A stretch of DNA of 64,000 nt from an uncultured Clostridia bacterium (GTDB lineage: Bacteria > Bacillota > Clostridia > UMGS1883 > UMGS1540), in the NCBI GenBank assembly GCA_937966555.1, contig CALCLY010000027.1, forward strand, positions 14,620-78,619. The letters are read 5' to 3'. This document shows, piece after piece, positions 19,339-53,672 of this stretch. Position 1 is the stretch's first letter; each line of letters opens with the position of its first letter. Made by a program: the position numbers and the translations under genes. Below the pieces are notes generated by a model. That model made no database searches, was not told where the DNA came from, and was given only the letters and a program-made list of their open reading frames with translations.

Positions 19339-19354
19339 TATGTAAGTAATTATT

Positions 19355-19397: not shown

Positions 19398-19400
19398 ATT

Positions 19401-19490
19401 GGCCGCTCACACTTGTTCGCTTTCAAACGCAAAGTAGGGGCGACCCTATGTGGTCGCCCGTCTTGTGCTCCGCACACCAAACAAACAAGG
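19401..19490. repeat. REP/BIME-like repeat
   Basis: gctcacacttgttcgctttcaaacgcaaa, then REP core 19434-19460 (plus), then the start of the ccgcacaccaaac module. Confidence 0.85.
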
Positions 19491-19498
19491 AGGTAAAC

Positions 19499-19705: not shown

Positions 19706-19709
19706 CTTT

Positions 19710-20168: not shown

Positions 20169-20173
20169 AAGGA

Positions 20174-20614: not shown

Positions 20615-20640
20615 ATTTATCATCCTTTCTTTATATGTTG

Positions 20641-20925
20641 TAGCTCACGCTTGTTCGCTCCTAAAACGACCGTAGGGGCGACCCTGTGTGGTCGCCCGTG
20701 CATGCATTCGGCGCTTCAACAACACATTGTTTCCTACCCTCATAGAGGTATAAAAAGCCACGTACACGCCGCGGCTTTTTATGATTTTAAGCCGCTTTCA
20801 ATAATGTACCGGTGTGGTCGCCCGTTTTGTTTCCGCACACCAAACGGACAATTCGTGAATTGTTCCTACAAAATAAAATCCAAATGCGCGGACAACAATT
20901 TTTCCGCATCCAATAATGTCCCGAC
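20641..20925. repeat. mosaic REP/BIME-like repeat cluster
   Basis: Contains gctcacgcttgttcgctc, REP core 20672-20698 (plus), inverted cassette and terminator-like hairpin modules, half REP 20814-20824, hairpin GGACAATTCGTGAATTGTTCC, and the aaatgcgcggacaacaatttttccgca module (an inverted copy is at about 63268-63298). Confidence 0.9.
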
Positions 20926-20931
20926 GCCGGC

Positions 20932-21612: not shown

Positions 21613-22019
21613 AATTCCGTCACCTCAATATATCTTTCGTTCTCATTCTCTGTTTTTGTAAATTTTACCAAAGTGGCATTGCCGCGGAACAAATCCGCAA
21701 AACCGTCAAACCATTCAACCACCGTGATAACCCCGTCCGCAAGAGGGTCAAAGCCAATCTCGAAAAGTTCTTCCTCATCGCTTAAGCGGTACAAATCAAA
21801 GTGATGTACGGGAATTTTTCCTTCGTAAATATTCATGATAGTAAAAGTCGGGCTCGAAACCCTTCCGTCATATCCGCAGCCGCGCGCAATTCCGCGCGTG
21901 AATGCGGTTTTCCCCGCACCCAGCTCGCCCGAAAGGCAAAATGTGTGCGGCACACCGTATTTAAGTGCTATGGACGCGGCAAACTTTTCCGTGTCCTCAG
22001 TGCTTTTTGAATGAAACAT
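21609..22019 (-). CDS. tsaE: tRNA t6A biosynthesis ATPase TsaE
   Basis: LSGELGAGKTAFTRGIARG Walker A and SPTFTIMNIY...HFDLYRL blocks. Confidence 0.9.
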   Translation of the reverse strand: MFHSKSTEDTEKFAASIALKYGVPHTFCLSGELGAGKTAFTRGIARGCGYDGRVSSPTFTIMNIYEGKIPVHHFDLYRLSDEEELFEIGFDPLADGVITVVEWFDGFADLFRGNATLVKFTKTENENERYIEVTEF

Positions 22020-22040
22020 AATAATCTTTGCCTTTCTTCC

Positions 22041-22225
22041 TCACGCTTGTTCACTCTCCATAAATACCGTGAAAAGTTGGTAGTGCCGCGAAGGCGTTAT
22101 GTGTGCATTTATAAACACCAAGCATTCGCAAACGTGACTTTTCGCGGAAAAGGAGGGACAGCGGAGCGCAGCTTGTCCCGACGCCGTAGGGGCGACCCTA
22201 TGTGGTCGCCCGTTTTGTTTCCTCA
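22041..22225. repeat. mosaic REP/BIME-like repeat cluster
   Basis: The ccgtgaaaagttggtagtgccgcgaaggcg...acgtgacttttcgcgg element has 11-bp inverted ends. REP core 22186-22212 (plus). It lacks the CTGATTTTG...CAAAATCAG hairpin that is present in the copies at 26.4 and 30.5 kb. Confidence 0.9.
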
Positions 22226-22246
22226 ACACCATGCGGCAGCAAACTC

Positions 22247-23773: not shown

Positions 23774-24312
23774 TTTGTTATCTCCTTTTGGTTATATTCT
23801 TCGCCGCCCAGCGTTTTCCAATGGAATGTACCGTCAAATATCATATAGCTGTGGGGCGAATCCTGTTTCGGAATCGAAACGGAACCCGGATTTATATATG
23901 TGTAATTATCGTATTCTCTGCACTCCGGCACATGCGTGTGACCGCACAGCAGAATTTCTCCGTGCAGCTTTGAGAGAAAATCGTCGCTCAAGTTGTGCCC
24001 GTGAGCCGCATAAATCGTAACGCCGTCCGCAAGCAGAACCGCGCGCGGCGCAAGAATGTCAAACGGCAGCACCATGGCGTCAACCTCTGTGTCGCAGTTG
24101 CCGCGAACGCATATTATTTTGTCCGCCGCCGGCTGAAGAAGCGATATAACCTCCTTTGGGTCGTACAAATCAGGCAATGCGTTTCTCGGTCCGTGATAAA
24201 GTATATCTCCGAGAAGCAAAAGCCTGTCGGGATTTTCTCTTTTGTATGCCTCCATAAGTTTTGATACGTATTTTGCAGAACCGTGAAGGTCCGATGCTAT
24301 CATAATTTTCAT
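23770..24312 (-). CDS. yfcE: YfcE-family metallophosphoesterase (MJ0936-type phosphodiesterase)
   Basis: MKIMIASDLHGS, LLLGDILYHGPRN, VRGNCD and GHTH motifs. Confidence 0.85.
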   Translation of the reverse strand: MKIMIASDLHGSAKYVSKLMEAYKRENPDRLLLLGDILYHGPRNALPDLYDPKEVISLLQPAADKIICVRGNCDTEVDAMVLPFDILAPRAVLLADGVTIYAAHGHNLSDDFLSKLHGEILLCGHTHVPECREYDNYTYINPGSVSIPKQDSPHSYMIFDGTFHWKTLGGEEYNQKEITK

Positions 24313-24330
24313 GTTATTCTCCTTCCTTTG

Positions 24331-24415
24331 AGCTTCGCTGCTCTACCACCTTTTCGCTTTCAAAGCGCCGTAGGGGCGACCCTGTGTGGTCGCCCGTTTT
24401 GTTTGCGCACACCGC
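24331..24415. repeat. REP/BIME-like repeat
   Basis: REP core 24370-24396 (plus) followed by ttttgtttgcgcacaccgcac. Confidence 0.85.
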
Positions 24416-24426
24416 ACATTTCTTAC

Positions 24427-25278
24427 CTATCTCTTAAACCCTTCTCCCAAAACCTCTTTGGCGTCATTTATAATAACAAACGCATCGGGATCAAACTCGC
24501 GCACGGTTTTGACAAGCTGCGGAAGTTCCTTGGGGCGCACCACGCAAAGCAGCATAAGTCCGTCATCTCCCGAATACATGCCGCGGCAATGTATTCCCGA
24601 AACGCCGCGTTCGAACCTTTCCATAACGCAGCGCGCTATTTCCTCATTTTTCTTCGAGAAAATATGCACGGTTTTCGCATCGTCTCCCCACGTAACAAGA
24701 ATGTCCGTGATTTTCGCCGAAACGTACATGGAAAGGAGCGAATAAAATGTTATGTCAAAATCGCCGAAAACTATGCCCGAAAGCGCTATGGTTGCGCAGT
24801 CTATTATAAGAATCAGACGCGCTATGGAAATATGAGGGAAAAACTTTTTTAAAATAAGACCGGCAAAGTCGCTGCCGCCCGTGGACGAACCCACGCGCAC
24901 CACAAGCCCGAGTCCCACGCCGCAAAGCACGCCGCCCGAAAGCGCAGCAACCAAAACATTGCCCGTATACGGCGGAAAATAGCTTACAACTTCAAGAAAA
25001 ACTGTGAAAAGCAGCGTTCCCGAAACAGTTTTTGCAATCGCATATTTGCCCAAATGTCTGTAACCCAGCACAAAAAGCACCGCGTTTAACACAAGGTTTG
25101 TAATTGACAGTTTAATGCCGAAAAGGTGAAGCAGCACCGTTGCAACAGTTGTTACGCCGCCCGTGGAAATTTTACCCGGCGCCAAAAACATCGCCGCGCT
25201 CAGCGCCATGAGAAAGGTTCCGGCTGCGATAAAAGCCTGTTCAAAAAGTATTGTCTTCACCTTTTTTTGCATATTCAA
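24427..25278 (-). CDS. YitT-family membrane protein (DUF2179 C-terminal domain)
   Basis: Multi-transmembrane N-terminus containing GGVTT and GGSDF-type segments, and a soluble C-terminal domain HIFSKKNEEIA...RGVSGIHCRGMYSGDD. Confidence 0.8.
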   Translation of the reverse strand: MNMQKKVKTILFEQAFIAAGTFLMALSAAMFLAPGKISTGGVTTVATVLLHLFGIKLSITNLVLNAVLFVLGYRHLGKYAIAKTVSGTLLFTVFLEVVSYFPPYTGNVLVAALSGGVLCGVGLGLVVRVGSSTGGSDFAGLILKKFFPHISIARLILIIDCATIALSGIVFGDFDITFYSLLSMYVSAKITDILVTWGDDAKTVHIFSKKNEEIARCVMERFERGVSGIHCRGMYSGDDGLMLLCVVRPKELPQLVKTVREFDPDAFVIINDAKEVLGEGFKR

Positions 25279-25283
25279 TCTCC

Positions 25284-26291
25284 TTATTCAATTGCTGTAT
25301 TGACGGATGTTGAAACGATTTCAACCCAGGTCTGACCGGGGTTTAATTTAATTTCGTTTCCGCTTCCGTCTTTCCATACGGTTTTTGCGGTTCTGCTTTC
25401 CTTGCTCCATTTAACCGGCACGCATTTGCCTGCCGTGAGGAAATATCCTTCGCCGCTTCCCACATCGGAAATATTTATTCTTGCACTTCCGTCACCCAAA
25501 GGCGCTTCATGCATTTTCATCACGATAATATTCTCCGCCGCAATCTTCGCGCCCTCCTGCAAAGCGTAGGGAGAACCGTTTACGATGCGCGAATATGTTC
25601 CGCTCTCCGCGTCATATTCAAATTTCACCGAATAGAACGATGCGAACGGTATGTAAACCGAGCTTGCCGCGTCACCCTCGGGGGTGTAGCGCTCGTCTGC
25701 GAAATTAAGCGGCGCTTTTTCGCGGTCTGTTCTGTAGCTTTTGGCGCTTATCTGCTCGTTTATAAGCTTCATGGAAGTAAACGCGCTGTGATAGTCGTTT
25801 TTATGTTTTCTTTCGCGCCAGAATGCGCCGGCGTCATAAATTCCGTTTATGTTGTTTATGCCGAGTGCCGGAATATCCTCCATCGCCCTGGGACTCCAGC
25901 CGAAATGCGTGTAAATTGCGTCATGCTCCGAGGCATAGTCGAGAAAATAGTGTCTCGATGAGCGCACGGGACCGATTTTTTCGGTTTCCGTCTCGTTGAA
26001 AAGAGCCATAAGACGTGTTGCGCTGCCCTCAACGGTTATCTCATAAATAAGATATGCCTCCGAAAGTCCGGCATGAGGCCATGCGTCTTTATTGTCGTTA
26101 TCTATCATAACGGCAACGGGTCTTTTTGTTGCTTTCTCGTATTTTACCGCAAAATCGTCCTTCTGCGGTTCCGGCGCAGCGGTCTCCGTCGGTGCCGGAA
26201 TGCTCTCCGTCTCGGCTTTTTTCTTTCCGCACGCTGAAAAAGCGCCCGCCATCATAATAACCGCCAGAAATAAACTCAGTTTCTTTTTCAT
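25284..26291 (-). CDS. DUF3048-like lipoprotein
   Basis: Start trimmed to MKKKLSLFLAVIMMAGAFSACGKK (lipobox), with GGAG upstream. The pattern PVAVMIDN...WPHAGLSEAYLIYE...EGSATRLMALF resembles the DUF3048 family. Confidence 0.75.
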   Translation of the reverse strand: MKKKLSLFLAVIMMAGAFSACGKKKAETESIPAPTETAAPEPQKDDFAVKYEKATKRPVAVMIDNDNKDAWPHAGLSEAYLIYEITVEGSATRLMALFNETETEKIGPVRSSRHYFLDYASEHDAIYTHFGWSPRAMEDIPALGINNINGIYDAGAFWRERKHKNDYHSAFTSMKLINEQISAKSYRTDREKAPLNFADERYTPEGDAASSVYIPFASFYSVKFEYDAESGTYSRIVNGSPYALQEGAKIAAENIIVMKMHEAPLGDGSARINISDVGSGEGYFLTAGKCVPVKWSKESRTAKTVWKDGSGNEIKLNPGQTWVEIVSTSVNTAIE

Positions 26292-26320
26292 AAGAATCTC
26301 CAATCCGATATCAAATTTTC

Positions 26321-26545
26321 GCTCACGCTTGTTCGCTCTCCATAGCCACCGTGAAAAGTTGGTAGTGCCGCGAATGCGTATATGTGTGCATTTATAAACA
26401 CCAAGCATTCGCAAACGTGACTTTTCGCGGAAAAGGAGGGACAGCGGAGCGTGTGACTGATTTTGTATTCAAAATCAGAACGAAGCGCAGCTTGTTCCGA
26501 CGCCGTAGGGGCGACCCTGCGTGGTCGCCCGCCTTGTGTTACGCG
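26321..26545. repeat. mosaic REP/BIME-like repeat cluster
   Basis: gctcacgcttgttcgctctc, then the 190-bp element including the CTGATTTTGtattCAAAATCAG hairpin, then REP core 26505-26531 (plus). Confidence 0.9.
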
Positions 26546-26613
26546 CATACGATATTTTTTACATATCAACAAATCTATTTTACCACTTTTTAACCAAAAA
26601 GGCAAGAAAAATA

Positions 26614-28533
26614 TTATTCAAGCTCAAACGCACCGGTATAAAGTCTGTAATAAGTGCCTTTTTTGGCAATAAGCTCGTCATGGCTGCCGCGTTCAATTAT
26701 TCTGCCGTGGTCAAGCACCATAATAACATCGGAGTTTCTTACGGTGGAAAGCCTGTGCGCTATAACAAACACGGTTCTGCCCTCCATAAGCTTGTCCATG
26801 CCGCGCTGAACTATCGCCTCGGTGCGCGTGTCAATGGAGGACGTTGCCTCGTCAAGTATCATAACCGGCGGATCGGCAACGGCAGCACGCGCTATTGCGA
26901 TAAGCTGTCTCTGACCCTGCGAAAGGTTTGCGCCGTTATTTGAAAGCTCTGTTTCATATCCCTGCGGAAGTCTTGAAATAAAATCGTCCGCGCCGGCAAG
27001 TTCCGCCGCTTTTCTGCACTCGTTGTCCGTGGCTTCAAGTCTGCCGTAGCGGATATTGTCCATAACGGTGCCGGTGAAAAGATTCGTCTCCTGCAAAACT
27101 ATGCCTAAGGATTTTCTCAAATCATCCTTCTTTATTTTGTTTATATTTATGCCGTCATAGCGGATTTTTCCGTCTTCGATATCGTAAAACCTGTTGATAA
27201 GGTTTGTGATTGTTGTTTTTCCGGCGCCGGTTGCGCCCACGAAAGCCACCTTCTGACCCGGCTCGGCATATACGGAAACGTCGTGCAGAATCTGCTTGCC
27301 CTTCGTATAGGAAAAGTCAACGTCAACCATTCTCACATCGCCGCGAAGCTCCGTATAAGTCAGGCTTCCGTCTCCGTGGGGGTGCTTCCACGCCCATTTT
27401 CCGGTGTGTTCCGCACTTTCTTCTATGCTGCCGTCTTCTTTGATTTTCGCGTTTACCAAAGTTACATATCCGTCATCTGCCTCAGGCTTTTCGTCCGCCA
27501 GTTCAAAAACACGCTCCGCGCCGGCAAGACCCATTACAATGGCGTTAATCTGCTGCGAAAGCTGGTTTATGTTTCCCGTAAACTGCTTTGTCATATTAAG
27601 AAACGGCACAACTATGCTTATGTCGAGTATCGCTCCCGAAAGGCTTAAATTAGGCAGACGCATTGTTATGAAAAATCCGCCGGCAAGCGCAATTATAACA
27701 TAGATTATGTTACCGATATTGCCTATTACGGGGCCCAGAATATTTGCATATGCGTTTGCTTTTTTCGTGTCCTCGTAAAGAGCGTCGTTTATTTCATCAA
27801 AATCGCGTTCGCACTCTCTCTCGTGCGAAAAGACCTTGACAACCTTCTGACCGTTCATCATTTCCTGAACAAAGCCCTCCGCGCGGCCTATTGATTTCTG
27901 CTGACGTATGAAATATTTTGCCGAGCCGCCGCCGACATTTTTTGTCACAAGCATCATAAGCGCAACGCCCAAAAGCAGCACAAGTGTCATCCATACGCTG
28001 TAATAAATCATTACGAAAAAGACGAGTATAACCACCGACCCTGCGCGAAGAAGCGAGGGCAGCGCCTGTGACACAAGCTGTCTTAAAGCGTCTATATCGT
28101 TTGTGTAATGGCTCATGATATCGCCGTGTTTGTTTTGGTCAAAGTATTTTATCGGCAGTTTCTGCATTCCGCCGAACATTTTACAGCGCATTTTGCAAAG
28201 AAATCCCTGCGTGATAAATGCCATAAGCTGCGTGTAAAGAAGCGTCGCGGCAAGTGAAATCACATAAAGCGTTATAAGTATTGCCATTTTCGGAACAAGC
28301 TCCGCGTGCGCCGCGCTCCAGTCGGAGGTTTCGATGTATTTGCTTATAATCGCTATAACCTTTTGCAGGAAAACGTCCGGCAAAGCCGCGGCAAGAGCCG
28401 AAAAGAGTATGCAGAAAATTGTGACGGGGACAAGAACCGGATAATACTCAAAAAGCGTTTTCAGCACTCTGCCGAAAACACCTTTTTTCGGCTGCCCGCC
28501 GCGCGGTGCGGCTTTCATATTATTTCTGCTCAT
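26614..28533 (-). CDS. ABC transporter, fused permease/ATP-binding protein (exporter type)
   Basis: Six-transmembrane N-terminal half, GATGAGKTT Walker A, LSQGQRQLIAIARA signature and ILDEATS Walker B. Start trimmed to ATG 28533 (GGGAGGGGA upstream), overlapping the upstream partner. Confidence 0.9.
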   Translation of the reverse strand: MSRNNMKAAPRGGQPKKGVFGRVLKTLFEYYPVLVPVTIFCILFSALAAALPDVFLQKVIAIISKYIETSDWSAAHAELVPKMAILITLYVISLAATLLYTQLMAFITQGFLCKMRCKMFGGMQKLPIKYFDQNKHGDIMSHYTNDIDALRQLVSQALPSLLRAGSVVILVFFVMIYYSVWMTLVLLLGVALMMLVTKNVGGGSAKYFIRQQKSIGRAEGFVQEMMNGQKVVKVFSHERECERDFDEINDALYEDTKKANAYANILGPVIGNIGNIIYVIIALAGGFFITMRLPNLSLSGAILDISIVVPFLNMTKQFTGNINQLSQQINAIVMGLAGAERVFELADEKPEADDGYVTLVNAKIKEDGSIEESAEHTGKWAWKHPHGDGSLTYTELRGDVRMVDVDFSYTKGKQILHDVSVYAEPGQKVAFVGATGAGKTTITNLINRFYDIEDGKIRYDGININKIKKDDLRKSLGIVLQETNLFTGTVMDNIRYGRLEATDNECRKAAELAGADDFISRLPQGYETELSNNGANLSQGQRQLIAIARAAVADPPVMILDEATSSIDTRTEAIVQRGMDKLMEGRTVFVIAHRLSTVRNSDVIMVLDHGRIIERGSHDELIAKKGTYYRLYTGAFELE

Positions 28534-30268
28534 CTTTGTCCCCTCCCTTCGTCTGCTGCTCAAAGATTTCTCTGTATATCTCGCTGCGCTCCATAAGCTC
28601 GCTGTGCGTGCCGGAATCTGCAACCGTGCCGTTGTCCATTACAACTATAATATCCGCATCCTCAACCGAGGCAATGCGCTGCGCTATTATAATTTTTGTG
28701 GTTTCCGGAATGTATTTTTTAAACGCCGAGCGGATAAGCGCGTCGGTTTTCGTGTCAACCGCGCTTGTGGAGTCGTCAAGAATAAGTATTTTCGGCTTTT
28801 TCAAAAGTGCGCGCGCTATGCACAGGCGCTGCTTCTGACCGCCCGAAACATTTGTTCCTCCCTGTTCGATACGCGTTTCATATTTATCGGGAAAGCTTTC
28901 CACAAACTCGTCCGCACAGGCAAGGCGGCAGGCCTCGCGCAGCTCATCGTCTGTAGCGTTTTCATTGCCCCATCTGAGGTTTTCGGCTATCGTGCCGGAA
29001 AACAGCAGATTTTTCTGAAGCACCATTGATACCGCGCCGCGGAGCGTGTCGAGGTGATATTTTCTTACATCCTCGCCGCCTACCGAAACCGTACCCTCGG
29101 TCACATCGTAAAGCCTCGGAATCAGCTGCACAAGAGACGATTTTGAAGAACCCGTGCCTCCTATGATTCCCACAGTCATGCCCGATTTTATATGAAGATT
29201 TATATCCGAAAGCGCATATTTTTTTGCGCCCGCACTGTATTTAAAGCTTACTCCGTCAAAATCCACAGAGCCGTCTTTCACGGTCATCAAGGGATTTTCG
29301 GGTTCGGTCAGCGCCGGAGTTTCGCCCAAAACTTCGGTTATACGTTTGCCGGACTCCGCGCTCATCGTCAGCATGACGAAAATCATTGAAAGCATCATAA
29401 GCGACATAAGCACCTGCACGCCGTAGCTTAAAAGTGCCGAAATCTGACCGACGTCCAAAGCCGCGCCGCCGCTGCCTATAGCAAGCGACGAGCCTATCCA
29501 CAAAATGAAAACCATGTTAAAATACATGCATAGGGTCATAAGCGGAGTGTTAAGCGCCACAATTCTCTCCGCAAACACAAAGTCCTTTTTTATGTCCTCC
29601 GCGGCATTGTTGAATTTGTCTTTTTCGTAGTCCTCGCGCGCAAAGCCTTTTACAACGCGCATTCCGCGCACGTTTTCCTCAACCGATTCGTTAAGCTTAT
29701 CGTATTTTCTGAAAACGCGCCTGAACGCCGGCATGGCTTTTTTGCCTATAAACCACAGGCCGCAGCCGAGCACCGGTATAACAATAACAAACGCCGTGGC
29801 AAGCTTGCCGCCCATCTTAAACGCCATTATTACGGAGAAAATCATCATCAGAGGGCTTCGCACAGCCGTTCTTATCAGCATCATGAATGCCATCTGAACA
29901 TTGCTTACGTCCGTTGTAAGTCTTGTAACAAGCGAGGCGGACGAAAATTTGTCTATATTTTCAAAGCTGTAGCGCTGAATTGCGCGGAACATATCCGACC
30001 TTAAATTTTTCGCAAAACCCGCCGAAGCCTTTGAACACGTAAATCCCGCCAGTCCGCCGCACATAAGAGACGCGCACGCCATTATAACAAGCAGAAGCCC
30101 CGTTCCCAAAAGCTCGCGTATGTCCGTTCCTTTTCGTATATCGTTTACAAGTCCCGCCGTTATAAACGGGATTATTGTTTCAAAGATTGCCTCGCCCACA
30201 ATGAGCAAAAGTGTGTAGATTGCCGGTTTTTTAAATTCTCTTACCGATGCCCAAAGTTTTTTAATCAT
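28520..30268 (-). CDS. ABC transporter, fused permease/ATP-binding protein (heterodimer partner)
   Basis: GGTGSSKSS Walker A, VSGGQKQRLCIARA signature and ILDDSTSAVD Walker B. Start trimmed to MIKKLW (ATG 30268, AAGGAAGGAG upstream). Confidence 0.9.
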   Translation of the reverse strand: MIKKLWASVREFKKPAIYTLLLIVGEAIFETIIPFITAGLVNDIRKGTDIRELLGTGLLLVIMACASLMCGGLAGFTCSKASAGFAKNLRSDMFRAIQRYSFENIDKFSSASLVTRLTTDVSNVQMAFMMLIRTAVRSPLMMIFSVIMAFKMGGKLATAFVIVIPVLGCGLWFIGKKAMPAFRRVFRKYDKLNESVEENVRGMRVVKGFAREDYEKDKFNNAAEDIKKDFVFAERIVALNTPLMTLCMYFNMVFILWIGSSLAIGSGGAALDVGQISALLSYGVQVLMSLMMLSMIFVMLTMSAESGKRITEVLGETPALTEPENPLMTVKDGSVDFDGVSFKYSAGAKKYALSDINLHIKSGMTVGIIGGTGSSKSSLVQLIPRLYDVTEGTVSVGGEDVRKYHLDTLRGAVSMVLQKNLLFSGTIAENLRWGNENATDDELREACRLACADEFVESFPDKYETRIEQGGTNVSGGQKQRLCIARALLKKPKILILDDSTSAVDTKTDALIRSAFKKYIPETTKIIIAQRIASVEDADIIVVMDNGTVADSGTHSELMERSEIYREIFEQQTKGGDKDEQK

Positions 30269-30291
30269 GTTATTCTCCTTCCTTAGCATTC

Positions 30292-30715
30292 ACTGCCGCT
30301 TACGCTTGTTCGCTCTCAAACAATGTATCGTAGGGGCGACCCTGCGTGGTCGCCCGTTTTGTTTTTCTCACACCAAACGGACAATTCGTGAATTGTCCCT
30401 ACGCGTCGGAACATACACGCCGCGGCTTTTTATGATTTTAAGCCTTTTCTGCGTTCTCGATCCACCGCGAAAAGTTGGTAGTGCCGCGAATGCGTATATG
30501 TGTGCATTTATAAACACCAAGCATTCGCAAACGTGACTTTTCGCGGAAAAGGAGGGACAGCGGAGCGTGTGACTGATTTTGTTTTCAAAATCGGAACGAA
30601 GCGCAGCTTGTTCCGACGCCGTAGGGGCGACCCTGCGTGGTCGCCCGTTTTGTTTTTCTCACACCAAACGGACAATTCGTGAATTGTCCCTACGCGTCGG
30701 AACGTACACACCGCG
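30292..30715. repeat. mosaic REP/BIME-like repeat cluster with internal 89-bp direct duplication
   Basis: REP cores 30330-30356 and 30621-30647 (plus). Each is followed by ttttgtttttctcacaccaaacGGACAATTCGTGAATTGTCCctacgcgtcggaac. The two copies lie 291 bp apart and flank a 190-bp element. Confidence 0.92.
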
Positions 30716-30802
30716 TCTGTCCGCTCTTATTTTACCAAAAAGCGGCCCCGACAATACTTTGTCAAAGCCACTTCTTTTTAATTCCGCTAAAAATCTTTTG
30801 TA

Positions 30803-45910: not shown

Positions 45911-46036
45911 ATGAATTTTGACATAAATCTTTTTCTTTATACACTTCCCGTTATGGGGAAAGGCATGGCAGGCATTTTTATTGTGACCGCCGCGATTATA
46001 CTGTGCATGAAACTTATGACGGCGGCGGATAAGTAG
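45911..46036 (+). CDS. small OadG-like membrane subunit (41 aa)
   Basis: MNFDINLFLYTLPVMGKGMAGIFIVTAAIILCMKLMTAADK contains one transmembrane helix and the GMxxIF pattern of gamma subunits. Below the ORF-track size cutoff. Its TAG stop lies inside REP core 46033-46059. Confidence 0.5.
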   Translation: MNFDINLFLYTLPVMGKGMAGIFIVTAAIILCMKLMTAADK

Positions 46037-46059
46037 GGGCGACCCTATGTGGTCGCCCG
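46033..46059 (+). repeat. REP core immediately upstream of the RAYT gene
   Basis: GTAGGGGCGACCctatgtGGTCGCCCG. Confidence 0.95.
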
Positions 46060-46077
46060 AAATAAAGGAATGACGAA

Positions 46078-46530
46078 ATGAACAAAATGCCAGAAAGAAA
46101 GCAAACCAGGTTGAAGGATTATGATTATTCGCAAAACGGATATTATTTCATAACAATATGTACCCATAACAGACAAAATTTATTCGGTGAAATCGTAGGG
46201 GCGACCCTATGTGGTCGCCCGAATAATCCTGATAAAATGATTGAAAAATGGTTATTGGAATTGGAAAACAAGTTTGATGGTGTCAAAATATGCGAATATA
46301 TTATAATGCCGAATCATTTGCATTTTATAATATCGAAAACGGGCGACCACGCAGGGTCGCCCCTACGGGATATTGTGGGTTGGTTTAAAACAATGACAAC
46401 AAATGAATATATAGAAAATGTAAAAAAAATATGTTTCCGCCGTTTGATAAAAAAATATGGCAACGCAATTATTACGAACATATTATTCGCGATGAAAGTG
46501 ATTATATTGAAACGAAGGAATATATATTAA
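46078..46530 (+). CDS. REP-associated tyrosine transposase (RAYT; IS200/IS605-type Y1 HUH family), zero-frame ORF that ends before the catalytic Tyr motif
   Basis: KQTRLKDYDYSQNGYYFITICT N-terminus, HUH motif MPNHLHFII and WFKTMTTNEY helix. REP cores lie in frame at 46195-46221 (VGATLCGRP) and 46340-46366 (TGDHAGSPLR). After the A8 run (46422-46429) the zero frame reads unrelated sequence. Confidence 0.8.
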   Translation: MNKMPERKQTRLKDYDYSQNGYYFITICTHNRQNLFGEIVGATLCGRPNNPDKMIEKWLLELENKFDGVKICEYIIMPNHLHFIISKTGDHAGSPLRDIVGWFKTMTTNEYIENVKKICFRRLIKKYGNAIITNILFAMKVIILKRRNIY

Positions 46531-46547
46531 ATAATCCTTTAAAATGA
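46428..46547 (+). other. -1 frame continuation of the RAYT gene encoding the catalytic-Tyr module
   Basis: The -1 frame reads NMFPPFDKKIWQRNYYEHIIRDESDYIETKEYILNNPLK then stop at 46545-46547, which is the conserved C-terminus of this family. It joins the zero frame at the A_AAA_AAA heptamer 46422-46428. This is a frameshifted pseudogene, a homopolymer sequencing error or recoding. Confidence 0.7.
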
Positions 46548-46552
46548 GAAAA

Positions 46553-46689
46553 GTAAGGGCGACCCTATGCGGCCGCCCCATTTTGCGTTCCGGAGTTTTT
46601 TAACATCCCGAATGATTTGTTTTACTTAAAAATTTTTTTTAGATATTTTCTTGCGTTCCGGAGTAGGGGCGACCCTATGTGGTCGCCCG
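46553..46689. repeat. REP cores and accessory modules downstream of the RAYT gene
   Basis: Degenerate REP 46553-46579, the gcgttccggagttttttaacatccc module at 46583-46612 with a partial copy at 46647-46663, and REP core 46663-46689 (plus). Confidence 0.9.
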
Positions 46690-46718
46690 AATAATCCACT
46701 ATGTTGTTGATTTCAATA

Positions 46719-48113
46719 TTATAAGTTTTGTCCTTCTTCTAATCTTTCGATTTCTTTTTCCGCGGCTTCAATAGATTTCAAAACCGCTTCTTTTGCCGGT
46801 GCGCCGTAAACCTTTCTCTGGCTTACGCACGTTTCCATGCTTATCGCGTCATAGATGTCCTCATCAAAAACATCCGAGAAGCTTTTGAATTCCTCAAGAG
46901 TAAGGTCATCAAGAGCCTTGTCGCGGCTTATCGCATAAAATACCAGCTTGCCTATAACCGCATGCGCGTCCCGAAACGGCATTCCGTGTTTAACAAGATA
47001 ATCCGCAGCGTCCGTGGCGTTTGTGAAGCCGCCTTTTGCGCCTTTGTACATGTTTTCGGCGTTTATTTTCATTGTTTCAACCATTTTGCGGAACACAGGC
47101 ACGCACAAAAGCACCGTGTCAACCGCGTCAAACACCTGTTCCTTGTCTTCCTGCATATCTTTGTTGTATGCAAGCGGAATACCCTTCATCATTGTGAGAA
47201 GACCCATAAGGCTGCCGTATACTCTGCCGGTTTTTCCGCGGATAAGTTCGGCAACGTCGGGGTTTTTCTTCTGCGGCATTATGCTGCTTCCGGTGGAATA
47301 CGCATCGTCCATCTCAACAAATGAAAATTCGTTGCTGCTCCAGAGAATAAGTTCCTCGCAGAAGCGGCTCAAATGCATCATAAGAACCGACATGTCAAAC
47401 ACCGCTTCAAGCGCAAAATCCCTGTCGCTCACACCGTCCAATGAATTGTCGCTTATCTTTGAAAAGCCGAGCTCGCGGCAGACATATTCTCTGTCAAGAG
47501 GGTATGTTGTGCCGGCAAGCGCACCGCTGCCCAGAGGCATAACGGATGTGCGTGCCGCGCAGCCGCGCAGCCTGTCCGCATCGCGCAGAAGCATTTCAAC
47601 ATATGCCATGAAATGGTGCGCAAGTGTTATCGGCTGCGCCTTCTGCAAATGCGTGTAACCGGGCATGATGGTTTCTGTGTTTTCTTTCGCAAGAGTTATA
47701 AGCGATTTTATGAGCTTTATTGTCTCTTTTGAAATTTCGTGCAGAGCGGAAAGCATGTACATGCGCAGGTCAAGCGCCACCTGGTCGTTTCTGCTTCTGC
47801 CCGTGTGAAGTCTTTTGCCGGCTTCGCCTATCCTGTCCGTCAGGATTTTTTCAATATTCATGTGAATGTCTTCGGCGTCTATTAAAAACTCAACCTTGCC
47901 GGCTTCAATATCGGCAAGAATTTCGCGCAGCGTTTTTACAATAAGTTCGGAGTCCTCCGCCGGGATAATTCCCTGCTTGCCGAGCATTTTTGCATGCGCT
48001 ATGCTGCCTTCAATGTCTTCCCTGTACATTCTTTTGTCAAAGCGGATGGACGAGTTGAAATCGTCCACCGCCTTGTCTGTGCTTTTTTGGAATCTTCCTC
48101 CCCAAAGCTTCAT
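46719..48113 (-). CDS. argH: argininosuccinate lyase
   Basis: MKLWGGRF..., [12 protein letters not shown] and [12 protein letters not shown] signature motifs. 464 aa. Confidence 0.95.
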
Positions 48114-48128
48114 GTAATTTCTCCTTTT

Positions 48129-48235
48129 GTCGCTTTGCGCTCAATATTGTATTCAAAATCGGAACAAAGCGCAGCTTGTCCCGACGCCGTAGGGGCGGCC
48201 CCATGTGGTCGCCCGTTTTGTTTTCCGCACCTTAC
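48129..48235. repeat. REP/BIME-like repeat between argH and argG
   Basis: ttgtattcaaaatcggaacaaagcgcagcttgtcccgacgcc, then REP core 48189-48215 (plus, degenerate left arm). Confidence 0.85.
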
Positions 48236-48243
48236 GCGGCGCA

Positions 48244-49464
48244 TTACTTATTATCTTTAACTTTTTTAAGCATCTGGGCGCGAACCTTAAGCGGCAGTCC
48301 GAACAGATTTATAAATCCTGCAGCGTCCTTCTGGTCGTAAACTTCGTCTTCCGAGAATGTTGCGATATCTTCGTCATAAAGTGAATAGGGCGATGTTGTT
48401 CCGGCAGGCATGCAGTTGCCTTTGTAAAGTTTCATTTTAACTTTACCCGTAACGGTTTCCTGCGTGGAATCCACAAATGCACTCATAGCTTCGCGCAGCG
48501 GCGTAAACCAAAGTCCGTCATATACAAGATCTGCAAATTTGTTTGAAAGGTCGGCTTTGTAATGAAGCGTCTGCTTGTCGAGACATAGATATTCAAGCTC
48601 TTTGTGAGCCGCATACAAAAGTGTGCCGCCCGGTGTTTCGTAAACGCCGCGGCTCTTCATGCCCACAAGTCTGTTCTCCACGATATCTTCAATTCCGACG
48701 CCGTTTGCCGCAGCAAGCTCGTTTGCTTTCTTGAGAAGCTCTGCCGCGCTGTCATACTTAACTCCGTCAATTGCAACCGGAATACCCTTTTCAAATTCAA
48801 TTTCAACATATGTGGGTTTGTCGGGTGCCTGTTCGGGGGAAACCATGAGTTTCAGGAGTTTGTCGTACTGCGGCTCGTTTGCCGGGTCTTCAAGGTCCAT
48901 GCCCTCATGGCTTAAGTGCCATATATTTCTGTCCATGGAATAGTTGTCTTCTTTTGTAACGGGTACGGGAATGCCGCGCTTTTCTGCGTATTCGATTTCT
49001 TCTTCACGCGATTTAATATCCCATATTCTCCAGGGAGCGATTATTTTCATCTGCGGTGCGAGAGCTTTTATTGTGAGCTCGAAACGAACCTGGTCGTTTC
49101 CTTTGCCCGTGCAGCCGTGGCATATTGCCGTGGCGCCTTCCGCTTCGGCTATTTCAATAAGACGCTTTGCGATGCAGGGACGTGCGTGAGATGTGCCGAG
49201 CATGTATTTGCCTTCGTAAACCGCGCCGGCTTTCAGCGTCGGCCAGATGTAATTTCTTACGTAGTCCTCCTGAAGATTTTCTATATAAAGTTTTGAAGCG
49301 CCTGTCTTAAGAGCCTTTTCTTCGAGACCGTCCGTCTCTTTGCCCTGACCTACGTCACCGCATACGGCTATAACTTCGCAGTCATAATTTTCCTTAAGCC
49401 ACGGAATGATTATTGACGTGTCAAGACCGCCCGAGTATGCAAGAACAACTTTTTCTTTTGCCAT
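48244..49464 (-). CDS. argG: argininosuccinate synthase
   Basis: [32 protein letters not shown] and similar motifs. 406 aa. Confidence 0.95.
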
Positions 49465-49595
49465 TTTAAAAACATCCTTTCGCCAAAAAATTTATTTGCT
49501 TTAATACTATTTTAATGCTATAATAGAAAAAAGTAAAGAGTTTTTTTGATATTTATGCATTTTTATGCAATATAAATAAAATAAGGAGCAAAGAC

Positions 49596-50096
49596 ATGAA
49601 AATTTTAGGCATAGACCCGGGTTACGCTATAGTAGGCTTCGGAATAGTCGAATATAAGGGCAATAAGTTCACTCCGATAGAGTACGGAGCAATCACAACG
49701 GACAACAAAATGCCGTTTCCCGAAAGGCTGAAATACATATATGACAGAACGACTGATATAATAAATATGCATAAACCTGAATTTTTATCTATAGAAGAAC
49801 TGTTCTTCAACACGAATGTCAAAACCGCCATTGCCGTGGGACATGCGCGCGGAGTGCTGCTTCTGGCGGCGCAGAACCTCGGAGTGCCGATATACGAATA
49901 CACTCCGCTTCAGATAAAACAGGCAGTCACCGGCTACGGCAGAGCGGATAAAAACCAGGTTCAGCAGATGGTTAAAACGCTTTTGTCTCTTCAGAAGGTG
50001 CCCAAACCCGACGATACCGCCGATGCACTTGCCGTCGCGGTGTGCCATGCTCATTCGTATAACCCGAATACGTCAAATCTTTTCAGAGTGCAGTAA
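49596..50096 (+). CDS. ruvC: crossover junction endodeoxyribonuclease RuvC
   Basis: [18 protein letters not shown]...IEELFFN...[19 protein letters not shown]...[12 protein letters not shown]. Confidence 0.93.
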
Positions 50097-50175
50097 AAGA
50101 ATTTTTGTTTTTGATGTATTTATAGGAAATAAAACAGAAGGATTTGTATTATTTAATAATGTTGTTTAAATATTT

Positions 50176-50206
50176 TTCTTGCGTTCCGGAGCTTTTTAAC
50201 ATCCCC
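50176..50206. repeat. copy of the ttcttgcgttccggag(c/t)tttttaacatcccc module overlapping the 3' end of the Fe-S protein gene
   Basis: Same module as at 7221-7255 and 46583-46612. The stop codon (50196-50198) and the last two codons of the minus-strand ORF lie inside it. Confidence 0.75.
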
Positions 50207-50858
50207 TGCCCCCTTTGGGGCAGACGCTCATACATACCCCGCATACGGCGCCGCGCCCTATACTTTTAAATTTCTCTTTCATGTAGTCGCTGCACGCCTT
50301 GGCGTCAAAAATATCGTCTCTTGTCATGCCGCTTTGATACGCAACATTTTTTATGGCAAGCGCGCCGCATGCCTTGGAGCAGAGCGAGCAGCTGCCGCAC
50401 AAATCCTCCTGCACGCGGCAAAGCGTTTTCAAAGGAGCATTTGTGAAAACCGTGGCAAGCCTTACGCGCGGACCGAATTTGTGCGATATGAAAAGCGCGC
50501 TTTTTCCTATATATCCGAGCCCTGCGCGCACGGCAGCCGTTTTGTGCGGAAAAATGCCCTGCATGCCGTTTACGGACTGGCTTGCCGGCACTGCGGCGGC
50601 TCTGTAACCCATGCTCTGAAGATATAAAACAAGCTGCAGCGTGACGCTGTCAAGATACGCGTTGACGGTTCTGTAATGGTGAAAATACGTGTGCGTGGGG
50701 GAGGCGTCTATCTGCTCTGCCACAGCGTCCGAAAGGTGCAGCACGCATGATATAGCGGAAGGCAGTCCCTCAAAGGGCGTATCTTCGGAACATTCGGCAA
50801 AGCCCGAGTCCGAAATAAATCTGTCTTTTAAAAATTTATTGATATCGTCATTTAACAT
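50196..50858 (-). CDS. 4Fe-4S double-cluster protein, QueG/reductive-dehalogenase-like (short form)
   Basis: CGSCSLCSKACGALA and CGVCMSVCPKG ferredoxin-type motifs, plus the central pattern GLGYIGKSALFISHKFGPRVRLATVFT. The assignment to QueG is tentative. Confidence 0.6.
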   Translation of the reverse strand: MLNDDINKFLKDRFISDSGFAECSEDTPFEGLPSAISCVLHLSDAVAEQIDASPTHTYFHHYRTVNAYLDSVTLQLVLYLQSMGYRAAAVPASQSVNGMQGIFPHKTAAVRAGLGYIGKSALFISHKFGPRVRLATVFTNAPLKTLCRVQEDLCGSCSLCSKACGALAIKNVAYQSGMTRDDIFDAKACSDYMKEKFKSIGRGAVCGVCMSVCPKGGRGC

Positions 50859-50931
50859 AATGATTATTCATGTCCTTTGCGTGTATTTTATATAATAAGT
50901 ATAACTTAAATCGGCTTTAATGTCAATTCCC

Positions 50932-50960
50932 TTGACAAATCGGGAAAAAAGCTTTAAAAT
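50932..50960 (+). promoter_or_regulatory. sigma-A promoter upstream of the hypothetical-nifS-thiI-cinA gene string
   Basis: TTGACA (50932-50937), 17 nt, TAAAAT (50955-50960). Confidence 0.6.
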
Positions 50961-50997
50961 ATAGTATTGAAAAGCCGTCGAAAGGTAGGAATGCTTT

Positions 50998-51357
50998 ATG
51001 AAACAGAATCACGAACTCAAAAGACAGCTTATAGAAAACGAAATACACAGCATTGTTATGGCGGACAAACGCGCAATACTGCTCGATAATCTGCGCCGCC
51101 GGAAAAAGCGCCTCGGCAATTTGAAGCTCGGCGATACGGTGCTTCTTTTTGAATACATGGGAAGAAAGAAACATGCTTCGTCCGATGAAAACGACACGCT
51201 TTACAGAATTACGGAGGGCAAAGTCATTCAGGTTACAAAAAGCGGTTTTTTCCTTGACGGATTAAACGGCAGAGGTCATAAAACAATGGAGTTTGTGAAC
51301 AAAGCGCATATAATAAGCGGCAGAGTTCAGCTCTTATTAAAGGAAAAGAATGTATGA
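50998..51357 (+). CDS. hypothetical protein (119 aa)
   Basis: ORF with AAAGGTAGGA upstream. Its stop overlaps the nifS-like start (ATGA at 51354). I recognise no domain. Confidence 0.55.
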   Translation: MKQNHELKRQLIENEIHSIVMADKRAILLDNLRRRKKRLGNLKLGDTVLLFEYMGRKKHASSDENDTLYRITEGKVIQVTKSGFFLDGLNGRGHKTMEFVNKAHIISGRVQLLLKEKNV

Positions 51358-52472
51358 TTTATTTTGACAACAGCGCAACCACAAAGCCGTGCCGCGCCGC
51401 GGTGCAGGCTGCGGCGCGCGCCATGGAAGACGTGTTCGGGAATCCCTCGTCGTCTCACGGCGCCGGGATTGCGGCGCGTGCGGAGCTTAAGGCGGCAAGA
51501 GAAGAAGTGGCTTCTTCCCTGCATGTTACCCCCGATGAGATTTATTTTACTTCGGGCGGAACAATGTCTGACAATATCGCCGTTTTCGGCGGTGCGAAAA
51601 AAGGCGTCGGCAATCACGCGGTTACAACAAAAATTGAACATGAAGCGGTTCTGCTCTGCTTTGAAGAGCTTGAAAAGCGCGGTTTTGACGTGACGTATTT
51701 AACGCCGGAAAGCGACGGAAATATTTCGCTTTCGCAGATAGAAAAGGCGCTTACGCCCGAGACCTCGCTTGTGAGCATAATGACCGTAAACAACGAAACG
51801 GGCGCAATGCTGCCCGTTGACGGTGTGAAAGCTTTGATAAACAGAATCTGTCCGCGTGCGCTTTTTCACACGGACGCGGTTCAGGCGTTCGGCAAAACGG
51901 AGCTTTACCCCGATAAGTGGGGTGTTGACCTTCTGAGCGTTTCGGGCCACAAAGTTCACGCACCCAAGGGCGTGGGCGCGCTTTATATAAGACGCGGCGT
52001 TTCGCTTCTGCCGCATATTTTCGGCGGAGGACAGGAGAAAAATATTCATTCGGGAACGGAAAATCTCCCGGGAATTATGGGTCTTGCCGCGGCTGTGCGC
52101 GAGTTTGATATTCCGTGTAAAACCGTTTCAGAGATAAACGCGTACATGCGCCGCGGAATTTCAAAGCTTGACGGAGCGGAGATTAACAGCCCCGAAGACG
52201 CATCGCCGTATGTCCTCAATGTGTCGTTCGGAAAAATCCCCTCGGAAGTTATGCTAAATTCCATGGCGGCGGAGGGAATATGCGCCTCGGCAGGGAGCGC
52301 GTGCGCGGCAAACCGTTCGGGCGAAAGCTACGTTTTGCGCGCCATGGGCAGAAGCCCGAAAAGTGCAATCCGTTTCAGCTTTTCGCGTTTCAATACGCTT
52401 GAAGAAGCGGAAAAAACAATGGATTTTCTTAATAAAACCGTTCCCCTGCTTACGGAAATTGCAGGGAGGTAA
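51354..52472 (+). CDS. cysteine desulfurase (NifS/IscS-like class V aminotransferase)
   Basis: IYFDNSATT, SGGTMSDN, SVSGHKVHAPKGVGALY (PLP lysine) and the SAGSACA active-site Cys loop. Confidence 0.9.
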   Translation: MIYFDNSATTKPCRAAVQAAARAMEDVFGNPSSSHGAGIAARAELKAAREEVASSLHVTPDEIYFTSGGTMSDNIAVFGGAKKGVGNHAVTTKIEHEAVLLCFEELEKRGFDVTYLTPESDGNISLSQIEKALTPETSLVSIMTVNNETGAMLPVDGVKALINRICPRALFHTDAVQAFGKTELYPDKWGVDLLSVSGHKVHAPKGVGALYIRRGVSLLPHIFGGGQEKNIHSGTENLPGIMGLAAAVREFDIPCKTVSEINAYMRRGISKLDGAEINSPEDASPYVLNVSFGKIPSEVMLNSMAAEGICASAGSACAANRSGESYVLRAMGRSPKSAIRFSFSRFNTLEEAEKTMDFLNKTVPLLTEIAGR

Positions 52473-52514
52473 AACTGTGCCGGTGCAGGGCGGCGGAAGG
52501 GAGATCAAATTAAT

Positions 52515-53672
52515 ATGAAAGAAATTATACTTATTAAATACGGAGAAATAATACTTAAAGGCTTAAACAGACATATATTCGAAGATAAACTTGTAGGAAA
52601 CATCAAAAAAGCGGTGGGAGACAGTGCGCATGTTTATAAGTCGCTTGCAACGATTTATGCCGAGCCCCGGGAAGGCGCCGACATAGACGAGCTCATAGCG
52701 AAAATACGAAACGTTTTCGGAATAGTTTCAATAGCGCGCGCCGCGGTGTGCGAAAAGGAACTTTCCGATATCTGTGCCGCTGCGGCGGAATATTTAAAGG
52801 ACGAGCTTTCCCTGGTTAAAACTTTCAAGGTTGAGACAAAGCGCGCGGACAAGAAATATCCGCTCAAATCTCCGCAAATCAGCGCGGAAGTGGGCGGCGC
52901 ACTTTTGGATGCTTTCAAAAATTTAAGCGTCGACGTGAAAAATCCCGACCTTATCGTAAACGTTGAGGTGCGCGAAAGCGCGGCGTATGTATACGGCGGA
53001 AGAATCCGCGGCAGAGGCGGCATGCCAACGGGTACGGCAGGCAAAGCCATGCTGCTGCTCTCCGGCGGAATAGACAGCCCCGTTGCAGGCTACATGATAG
53101 CAAAGCGCGGCGCAACACTTGAGGGAATACACTTTTTCTCGCACCCTTTCACAAGCGAGCTTGCAAAACAGAAGGTGCTTGACCTGGCAAGGGAGCTTAA
53201 AGGCTTTACGGGTTCTCTGCGTGTGCATATTGTGCCGTTTACGCAGCCGCAGCTTCAGATGCGCGAAAAATGCCCGGCGGAGCACTTAACGCTTATTATG
53301 CGCAGAATGATGATGATGATAGCCTCGGAAATTGCGAAAAAACAGGGTGCTTTGTGCCTTGTTACGGGCGAAAGCCTGGGTCAGGTTGCAAGCCAGACCA
53401 TGGAGGCGCTTGCCGTGACGGATGATGCGGCTTCTCTTCCGTGTTTCCGTCCCGTAATAGGCATGGACAAAGAAGATATTGTAGCCATAGCGCGCGATAT
53501 AGGCACATTTGAAACGTCTATACTGCCTTATGAGGACTGCTGCACGATTTTTGTGCCCAAGCACCCCACAACAAGACCGAAACTTGAAAAAATTCTTGCC
53601 TCCGAAGCGCTTCTGGACGTTGAGACGCTGGTGCGCGACGCTGTCGAGGGAACAGAGGTTGTGGATGTCTGA
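52515..53672 (+). CDS. thiI: tRNA 4-thiouridine synthase ThiI
   Basis: [14 protein letters not shown], a THUMP region, and the PP-loop [12 protein letters not shown]. Confidence 0.93.

Follow-up and report, generated by a model that had tools for sequence, protein, structure and literature searches.

A frameshifted, putative subclass 2.4 RAYT gene carrying in-frame REP hairpins in an uncultured Clostridia bacterium

Background

Genes encoding REP-associated tyrosine transposases (TnpA_REP or RAYT), which are named after repetitive extragenic palindromes (REPs), have been sorted into subclasses by Quentin, Siguier, Chandler and Fichant 2018 (BMC Genomics 19:475, PMC6006769). According to these authors, REPs located in frame inside the tnpA_REP genes themselves are a hallmark of subclass 2.4 (their Figure S10) and are probably harmless surface extensions. 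In their table, the subclass has an HuH motif of the form NH[IFV]H, a WQ motif, a YIxNNP motif, no C-terminal extension and long canonical REPs whose foot consists of three G-C pairs. Its counterpart in the classification of Bertels et al. 2017 (PMC5581495) is RAYT Group 4. Some RAYT subclasses whose genes contain no REPs have GTAG-footed REPs as well (PMC6006769). In the literature, we found no paper on REP-coded peptides such as VGATLCGRP or GQTHRSAPT. Here, we analyze a gene of this type in a 64,000-nt stretch of DNA from an uncultured Clostridia bacterium (contig CALCLY010000027.1, positions 14,620 to 78,619), hereafter called the window. It is flanked by the REP that is dispersed in the window and contains two inverted copies of it in frame.

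A previous reading of the window by a model, made from the letters alone (the sequence-only reading), had presented this arrangement as undescribed. It is already published as the subclass 2.4 hallmark since 2018, and the window gene is a further, frameshifted instance of it from Clostridia. Our comparison with homologues suggests that the internal copies were inherited with the gene from the ancestor of its clade and are probably not recent acquisitions of the window genome. Their perfect match to the REP would be upheld by constraint or homogenisation acting on the nucleotides and not on the peptide.

Results

The gene and its in-frame REPs

The gene, its motifs and the five REP copies located in or next to it are as follows.

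46078–46547, plus strand: gene of the TnpA_REP/RAYT type (putative subclass 2.4), frameshifted; frame 1 extends over 46078–46530 and the correct C-terminal frame over 46431–46547
46195–46221, plus strand: internal REP 1, exact 27-mer, loop CTATGT, read in frame 0 as V40–P48 (VGATLCGRP); in the structure model, a beta-hairpin between beta1 and alphaA
46315–46323, plus strand: codons of the HUH motif, H80-L81-H82 of MPNHLHFII, between the two internal REPs
46340–46366, minus strand: internal REP 2, exact 27-mer, loop CTGCGT; its plus strand encodes T88–R97 (TGDHAGSPLR), modelled as the beta3-alphaC loop and the start of alphaC
46195–46366, plus strand: REPIN-like inverted doublet (REPIN, REP doublet forming hairpins), predicted stem of about 28 bp around a 118-nt loop with the HUH codons
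46422–46429, plus strand: A8 run, site of the frameshift; 1-nt deletion, intact allele AAAAAATAAT, deletion common to loci L085 and L086
46458–46463, plus strand: codons of the WQ motif (GTAG-recognition region of the family), in the frame downstream of the frameshift (KIWQRNYYEH)
46521–46538, plus strand: codons of the Y motif YILNNP, which includes the catalytic tyrosine (YIxNNP in subclass 2.4); same frame as the WQ motif, past the frameshift
46033–46059, plus strand: upstream flanking REP, exact 27-mer, loop CTATGT
46553–46579, plus strand: degenerate downstream REP, 3 mismatches, weak hairpin
46663–46689, plus strand: downstream flanking REP, exact 27-mer, with a 3' flank GAATAATCC common to internal REP 1

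The REP is a 27-mer, GTAGGGGCGACC-N6-GGTCGCCCG, that occurs without mismatch at the two internal and two of the three flanking sites. As single-stranded DNA (ssDNA), these four intact copies are predicted to form an 8-bp G+C-rich stem with a 6-nt loop and an unpaired GTAG foot, at -9.9 kcal/mol, a value unequalled by any shuffle; the degenerate copy at 46553–46579 is predicted to fold poorly. At the foot of the stem (GTAG followed by GGGCGACC...GGTCGCCC), pairs 1 to 3 are all G-C (GGG/CCC foot), as in long canonical REPs. Furthermore, GT[AG]G-footed dispersed repeats are located less than 1 kb from the gene, at 46033, 46553 and 46663, which is the arrangement called a REPtron. The GTAG of the upstream copy at 46033 provides the TAG stop of a 41-aa open reading frame (ORF), 45911–46036.

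Both internal REPs are in frame and in inverted orientation, with starts 145 nt apart. The REPIN-like pair proposed by the sequence-only reading is supported structurally by the predicted mutual pairing of the two copies, for which the energy is -75.7 kcal/mol (z -7.6) when folded as RNA and -41.8 kcal/mol (z -7.7) when folded as DNA. Neither the doublet nor its spacer was found a second time in the window. By a genetic-code count, the peptide VGATLCGRP has 294,912 possible encodings, and the gene uses exactly the extragenic 27-mer.

The internal REPs were also considered as intrinsic terminators. This role was rejected: the scan retrieved four terminator-like sites for 1.5 +/- 1.4 expected, which is not significant, and the only one located at an internal REP is antisense. 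At this site (46341–46362), the internal REP is followed on the antisense strand by GTTTTCG, which resembles the TTTTGTTT tail of most extragenic copies and is terminator-like for transcripts coming from the side of the convergent argH gene.

Identity and fold of the encoded protein

The ORF 46078–46530 has the N-terminus ...RLKDYDYSQNGYYFITICT and contains MPNHLHFII; the -1 frame 46431–46547 reads MFPPFDKKIWQRNYYEHIIRDE...EYILNNPLK (also given as ...KIWQRNYYEHIIRDE...EYILNNPLK). The repaired (frameshift-corrected) product of 156 aa, which was used for the profile searches, matches Pfam PF01797 (Y1_Tnp) over residues 22–152 with 35.1 bits for a cut-off of 23. Its best NCBIfam model is NF047646 (REP_Tyr_transpos), with 75.6 bits, the homologues P0001 and P0006 scoring 74.9 and 76.8 bits, respectively. 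By comparison, the IS200 model NF033573 gives 27.7 bits for a cut-off of 55. The repaired protein stops two residues past YILNNP and has no C-terminal extension. Its HuH motif is NHLH, the close homologues having NHIH, NHVH or DHIH.

The AlphaFold model of P0001, an intact homologue that is 97% identical, has a mean confidence (pLDDT) of 86.1 and a predicted template modelling score (pTM) of 0.81. Its top match in the PDB is 4ER8_A, the E. coli TnpA_REP in complex with a REP hairpin (E 1.2e-7, TM 0.66/0.62), followed by the IS608 and ISDra2 transposases, and a profile built from 33 homologues had 4ER8 as sole match among PDB sequences. One such gene was found by tblastn in the window and one in each related locus, and the closest named relatives come from uncultured Clostridia. 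The features found here that are typical of subclass 2.4 include the WQ motif, YILNNP, the absence of C-terminal extension, the GGG/CCC foot and in-frame REPs with family length variation at beta3-alphaC. On these sequence and model features, the gene probably encodes a TnpA_REP/RAYT of subclass 2.4, i.e. Group 4 of Bertels. The sequence-only reading had located the REP copies, the ORF, the motifs, the 145-nt spacing and the in-frame peptides correctly. Moreover, its assignment to an HUH/Y1 enzyme of the RAYT type agrees with the Y1_Tnp score, the best profile and the 4ER8 fold, and the presence of a single gene flanked by the REP of the window was confirmed by tblastn and by the pattern search.

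In the model, both internal sites are predicted to lie at the surface, away from the HUH/Tyr centre, with confidence for residues 40–48 and 88–97 somewhat below that of the core. Copy 1 would take the place of most of the beta-hairpin that follows beta1, and copy 2 would form the beta3-alphaC loop. The corresponding loops of REP-less relatives are nearly equal in length; therefore, the copies of the window lineage are replacements and not net insertions. In relatives such as P0135 or P0178, the nine REP residues are added on top of an ancestral xMxLNxxG hairpin.

Internal hairpins across homologues

REP-type peptides (VGAxxxxxP, GxHxGxPL, GxxHxxAPT or RGxPxxxP) were found in 96 of the 150 best cluster representatives at the 50% identity level. 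All are readings of one kind of GTAG palindrome on either strand, and five frame/strand combinations are used in the family. For the nucleotide comparison, we examined 82 loci, including 2 close relatives and 80 genome contigs (best identity among the latter, 60%), with at most 20 kb per genome inspected for extragenic REPs; P0122 and P0132, being on contigs of about 1 kb, are uninformative on extragenic REP density. Perfect GTAGG-footed hairpins are carried by 54 of 81 homologous genes, compared with 6 of 1620 shuffled genes. Their density reaches 2.08 per kb in the genes; in DNA located more than 500 nt away (about 1 Mb), it is 0.058 per kb, which makes a 36-fold enrichment. On the plus strand, 45 hairpins are in frame 0 and two in frame 1 (leaving out two GTGG-foot or out-of-gene artefacts); on the minus strand, 28, 10 and 6 are in frames 1, 2 and 0, respectively.

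The usual layout in the family is a plus hairpin located just past the HUH strand, then a minus hairpin 35–140 nt further on that abuts alphaC. In the clostridial clade (window, L001, L002, L005, L006, L087, L088, L089 and L090), the plus copy precedes the HUH motif, at nt 111–126, and the minus copy is found at nt 253–307. These alignment columns are shared by proteins that are 54–97% identical. The two internal copies of this clade are near-perfect reverse complements of each other, whereas the stems are usually unlike in other clades.

Codons were compared between the window gene and seven homologues at positions encoding the same amino acid, 19 REP-coded codons being set against the rest of the gene. 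Identical codons amount to 91–94% in the REP-coded part versus 43–70% elsewhere (Fisher one-sided p 0.002–0.026 per pair, the pairs being non-independent). Furthermore, the stems vary between genomes by compensatory pairs (GACC/GGTC, GCAC/GTGC, GGCC/GGCC). Within a gene, the stem is common to both internal copies and, in L087, it is also shared by the two flanking copies; L002 has a single flanking copy. The peptides shift together, VGAT going with GDH, VGAH with GAH and VGAA with GGH. Finally, in the 35 loci with both kinds of copy, 27 of 56 internal hairpins have the same 9-nt arm as an extragenic hairpin of their locus, compared with a mean of 10.7% and a maximum of 25% for permuted loci. 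A formal count of pair covariation was dropped as circular, the hairpins having been pre-selected for perfect pairing; synonymous identity, shuffles, flank background and locus permutation were used in its place.

Some homologues display other changes of their internal hairpins. In the alignment, P0016, P0019, P0055, P0074 and P0106 have a beta3-alphaC loop made of tandem 7-residue (21-nt) partial-REP units; the TGDHTGS unit is repeated up to about 10 times in these homologues, some of which carry an additional N-terminal VGATLCGRP. Hence, the internal hairpin appears prone to slippage-type expansion. Among the RAYT genes of L068, L071, L080 and L083, the stem types GGGGCAGGC and GGGGCAACC are in opposite order at the two intragenic positions in L068 and L080 versus L083, which suggests a cassette-like replacement of intragenic hairpins.

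Upstream of a 76%-identical homologue, REPs with the stem of the window are arranged as two inverted pairs, true REPIN-like doublets in which a plus copy is followed by a minus copy with a start-to-start distance of 84 nt. In addition, L091 carries a second REP family, with the stem GGGGCGGCC, as a tandem array about 3.5 kb upstream. The regions concerned are L090 9625–9950 and 6800–6830 and L091 6300–6830.

The frameshift allele and variation at the locus

The window gene is FRAMESHIFTED: compared with the intact P0001 (contig L001), it has a 1-nt deletion that changes GTAAAAAATAATATG to GTAAAAAAAATATG at 46420–46433. The identical deletion is found in the metagenome assemblies L085 and L086, whose sequences differ elsewhere from the window and whose upstream neighbour is another one; L001 and L002 carry an intact gene. 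Since it is also present in L085 and L086, the deletion is a real allele and not an assembly error. As read, the window allele encodes a 150-aa product without the WQ region and the tyrosine motif. The HUH motif and the catalytic tyrosine are thus joined in one intact frame in P0001/L001 and not in the window. The sequence-only reading had called the gene the mobilising enzyme of the repeat family; this does not hold for the allele as read, in which the frameshift cuts off WQ and YILNNP.

As read, the window copy is a pseudogene or, more speculatively, a gene with at best trace expression through slippage at the A8 run. This run (A AAA AAA) is a classic slippery sequence, and -1 ribosomal or transcriptional slippage could give traces of full-length protein. 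The A8 allele could in principle also revert by a change in homopolymer length. If the allele is dead, the REPs of the window would be a legacy population, unless another RAYT is encoded elsewhere in the genome.

L001 is conspecific, with 99.1–99.4% nucleotide identity to window positions 46651–53133; the RAYT segment is 96% identical. Homology with L001 starts exactly at the upstream REP at 46033 (L001 7179) and, further left, L001 has a sequence without counterpart in the window. Therefore, a rearrangement breakpoint is located exactly at this REP. The spacer between the two downstream REPs (46583–46663) also differs among strains. Two direct repeats bracket 68 nt of it that are missing from L001:

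46583–46595 and 46651–46663, plus strand: two 13-nt direct repeats TTGCGTTCCGGAG

In the position of this spacer, L085 has a module of about 250 nt (3548–3794) that is related to window positions 7028–7261 and is present three times in L001. The neighbours of the gene are the beta subunit of a Na+-translocating decarboxylase and the convergent argH.

REPs elsewhere in the window

A pattern search of the whole window gave 23 matches, which correspond to about 20 distinct copies; 100 shuffles gave none. Besides the copies located at the RAYT gene, 16 extragenic REPs were found in the first 48 kb of the window for none expected:

1555–11102, minus strand: extragenic REPs starting at 1555, 3318, 4323, 6964, 7273 and 11076
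15885–30647, plus strand: extragenic REPs starting at 15885, 15998, 19434, 20672, 22186, 24370, 26505, 30330 and 30621
48189–48215, plus strand: final copy of the window, 1 mismatch, located between argH and the following gene

No REP copy was retrieved by this search from 48.3 to 64 kb of the window. The orientation is minus for all six copies of the first 11.1 kb and plus for all those found between 15.9 and 48.2 kb, the internal copy at 46340 being the exception. An orientation dictated by the direction of flanking genes was rejected because plus copies sit between genes of either orientation. A replication-related bias and an inversion are candidate causes of the switch at 11–16 kb. The cumulative GC skew has its minimum at about 48–50 kb, and most long ORFs are on the minus strand before about 51 kb and on the plus strand after it.

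Most of the extragenic REPs are embedded as a core in longer repeats with a mosaic structure (e.g. 26415–26600, 30530–30720, 1480–1680 and 4250–4440). In a first type, the REP comes after about 90 conserved nt that include a second hairpin module, TCGGAAC-N12-GTTCCGA, found in 7 copies for 0 expected; on its 3' side are a TTTTGTTT tail and a GGACAATTC...GAATTGTCC hairpin. In a second type, the 5' flank is CGCTCACGCTTGTTCGCT...AATGTACC. At the RAYT gene, all five copies are bare 27-mers, devoid of mosaic flanks. A derivation of the extragenic units from gene segments was considered and rejected, the weak tblastn matches of the protein to extragenic REPs and their flanks (E 7e-4 to 0.1) consisting of the 9–10 REP-coded residues plus chance extension.

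Discussion

Origin and maintenance of the internal hairpins

We consider inheritance of the internal copies from the clade ancestor, combined with constraint or homogenisation of their nucleotides, to be the best explanation of this locus; taken together with the proposed identity of the gene, we hold it with moderate confidence. According to this scenario, the enzyme would act on ssDNA REP hairpins, preferentially near its own gene. REP–REP cleavage and rejoining by the enzyme, or ordinary gene conversion, would repeatedly overwrite the internal copies with the active REP variant. The 27-nt unit amounts to nine codons and is open in most frames; therefore, such a replacement would stay in frame. 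We favor overwriting because one third of the homologous genes have no perfect hairpins, because copy number at beta3-alphaC is very variable, with 21-nt tandem expansions, and because L068 and L083 carry exchanged stem types. The sequence-only reading had proposed, among other options, that REPs colonised surface loops. As a recent event, this is too simple: the same codons are occupied down to 54% identity, and the alignment with REP-less relatives argues against net insertions.

Various observations weigh against this explanation. Concerning the identity of the gene, the REP_Tyr_transpos score is slightly under the curated cut-off of 80 bits, and the leucine of NHLH is outside the published NH[IFV]H set, a conservative deviation. 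The cutting or moving of this REP by the protein family is itself presumptive. Concerning overwriting, 45 of the 47 plus copies are in frame 0, a skew that points to few ancient events or to peptide selection and not to frequent re-insertion. Moreover, an extragenic GTAG hairpin was not seen in 21 of the 55 loci with internal hairpins, 10 of these 21 having at least 14 kb. L089 (73% identical, 20.5 kb examined) retains a perfect minus copy identical to the window REP, its plus copy being broken by one base, and these 20.5 kb contain no further GTAGGGGC and no extragenic REP within 10 kb on either side. Such loci are awkward for a model that needs extragenic donors, although at most 20 kb per genome was inspected. 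Finally, direct selection on the hairpins for a function would account equally well for the synonymous conservation and the compensatory changes, homogenisation being what we infer.

The latter point leads to the strongest alternative, which we regard as a serious but clearly less probable one: the internal hairpins may be functional cis-elements of the gene and not tolerated passengers. They would then be a selected nucleic-acid component of subclass 2.4, ancestral at fixed sites and kept both paired and matched to the current REP specificity, which in the clostridial clade would take the form of a REPIN whose loop encodes the HUH motif. They may be self-targets, the enzyme sensing or limiting itself by binding to its own ssDNA or mRNA; they may form a long-range stem that slows down translation or attracts RNase III; or they may be protected master copies that move with the gene and can seed REPs in a new host. 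Pairing that is kept perfect by compensatory stem changes at fixed codons over deep divergence would fit such a function, as would the conserved synonymous sites, the 36-fold higher hairpin density in the gene than in its flanks and the strong frame skew. L089 and many other loci that hold internal hairpins with no extragenic REP in view also favor it, and the copies of the clostridial clade always have the same stem, with a predicted 28-bp pairing around the HUH codons (z about -7.6). However, 27 of 81 genes have no perfect internal hairpin and the REP-less members look intact, which makes the element dispensable. In addition, both the number and the position of the copies at beta3-alphaC are highly variable, with expansions in tandem, which is more reminiscent of mobile or slippage-prone DNA that is tolerated, and the stems differ in most other clades, so that a long-range stem is not general. 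The stem swap between L068 and L083 also fits cassette replacement better than slow co-evolution.

The reverse direction, i.e. palindromes that are ancestral coding sequence and extragenic REPs that were spawned from loops of the gene, seems improbable. The sequence-only reading had reasoned that the same palindrome and peptides in homologues from genomes lacking this REP would point to such an origin. This was observed in part, L089 having a perfect internal copy and no extragenic REP in 20 kb. Several loci with internal hairpins only, a hairpin abutting alphaC at the same structural site across many phyla and a density far greater in the gene than in its surroundings go in the same direction. 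However, other RAYT subclasses have GTAG REPs without intragenic copies (PMC6006769), and REP-less members of the family exist. Furthermore, the site is read in differing frames and orientations among homologues, which one inherited coding segment cannot yield, and the extragenic copies of the window bear long conserved flanks unrelated to the gene.

It is very unlikely that the palindromes arose as a side effect of peptide conservation (VGATLCGRP, GDHxGSPL), their match to the REP being coincidental or secondary. These peptides are nearly invariant in close homologues, but the gene uses the exact extragenic 27-mer among the 294,912 encodings. The codon analysis contradicts this origin, synonymous conservation being far over the gene background; moreover, the peptides co-change as stem complementarity demands and other homologues read the palindrome in other frames. 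Finally, the fold and catalytic motifs common to both enzyme types, the 96% identity of the gene region versus 99% for its neighbours between conspecific contigs and the breakpoint at the upstream REP could suggest an ordinary IS200/IS605 insertion sequence (IS) with ends that merely resemble the REP, an idea that we find hardly tenable given one copy in 64 kb, no second gene copy in any related locus, the low score with the IS200 model and flanking hairpins that are the dispersed REP of the genome.

Ancestral inheritance with overwriting thus remains our preferred explanation. This work mainly confirms a published peculiarity, the presence of their own REPs inside subclass 2.4 genes, and extends it to an uncultured Clostridia lineage. 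It adds the fixed codons, the synonymous conservation, the coupled stem changes, the match to local REPs, the 36-fold enrichment and the persistence without visible extragenic REP. These comparative results raise the question of selection, the copies having been treated as tolerated loop insertions in the 2018 description. If the hairpins are selected, they would be a rare case of an enzyme whose DNA substrate is embedded in its own coding sequence, and they would give a direct handle on the co-evolution of RAYTs and REPs and on the restraint of RAYT activity. The system is small and easily tested with oligonucleotides and synonymous recoding.

Comparison with known systems

The closest system is subclass 2.4 itself. 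The shared traits include WQ, YIxNNP, an HuH motif of the NHxH type, no C-terminal extension and a conserved N-terminal motif before the core. They also include a long GTAG REP less than 1 kb from the gene with three G-C foot pairs, a patchy spread over many phyla and in-frame REPs located chiefly between beta3 and alphaC, where length is variable. In contrast with the emphasis of the published description on Cyanobacteria and Bacteroidetes, the host here belongs to Clostridia. One copy precedes the HuH motif (beta1-alphaA), so that an inverted pair brackets the HUH codons. Moreover, the motif is NHLH, the internal copies have the same stem and are able to pair, and the allele is frameshifted.

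The E. coli TnpA_REP, or RayT (4ER8; subclass 2.2, Group 2), has the same fold (TM 0.66) and the HUH and tyrosine chemistry, a GTAG-footed ssDNA hairpin as substrate (in REPs and bacterial interspersed mosaic elements, BIMEs) and a single-copy gene flanked by REPs (REPtron). However, identity is about 20%, the E. coli protein has a C-terminal extension, and its REPs are imperfect, bulged palindromes, none of them located within the gene. The IS200/IS605 TnpA proteins (IS608, ISDra2) share the HUH/Y1 fold, subterminal hairpins that flank the gene and a guide tetranucleotide 5' of the hairpin. These IS, however, occur in multiple copies that each move as one unit, with hairpins that are neither a dispersed genomic repeat nor located within the ORF.

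Two other systems resemble the internal copies more than the enzyme. Intragenic insertions of REPs and Rickettsia palindromic elements (RPE; Di Nocera et al. 2013, PMC3733652) are also in-frame palindromes that encode about 9–30 loop residues. Their hosts are unrelated genes and the additions are lineage-specific, whereas the host here is the presumptive enzyme of the repeat, with sites that have stayed the same over deep divergence and copies that vary in step with local REPs. Lastly, as in the REPINs of Bertels and Rainey, two inverted REPs are predicted to form one long hairpin, but the 118-nt spacer is coding here, from alphaA to beta3 and including the HUH motif, and the doublet has no extragenic copy in the window.

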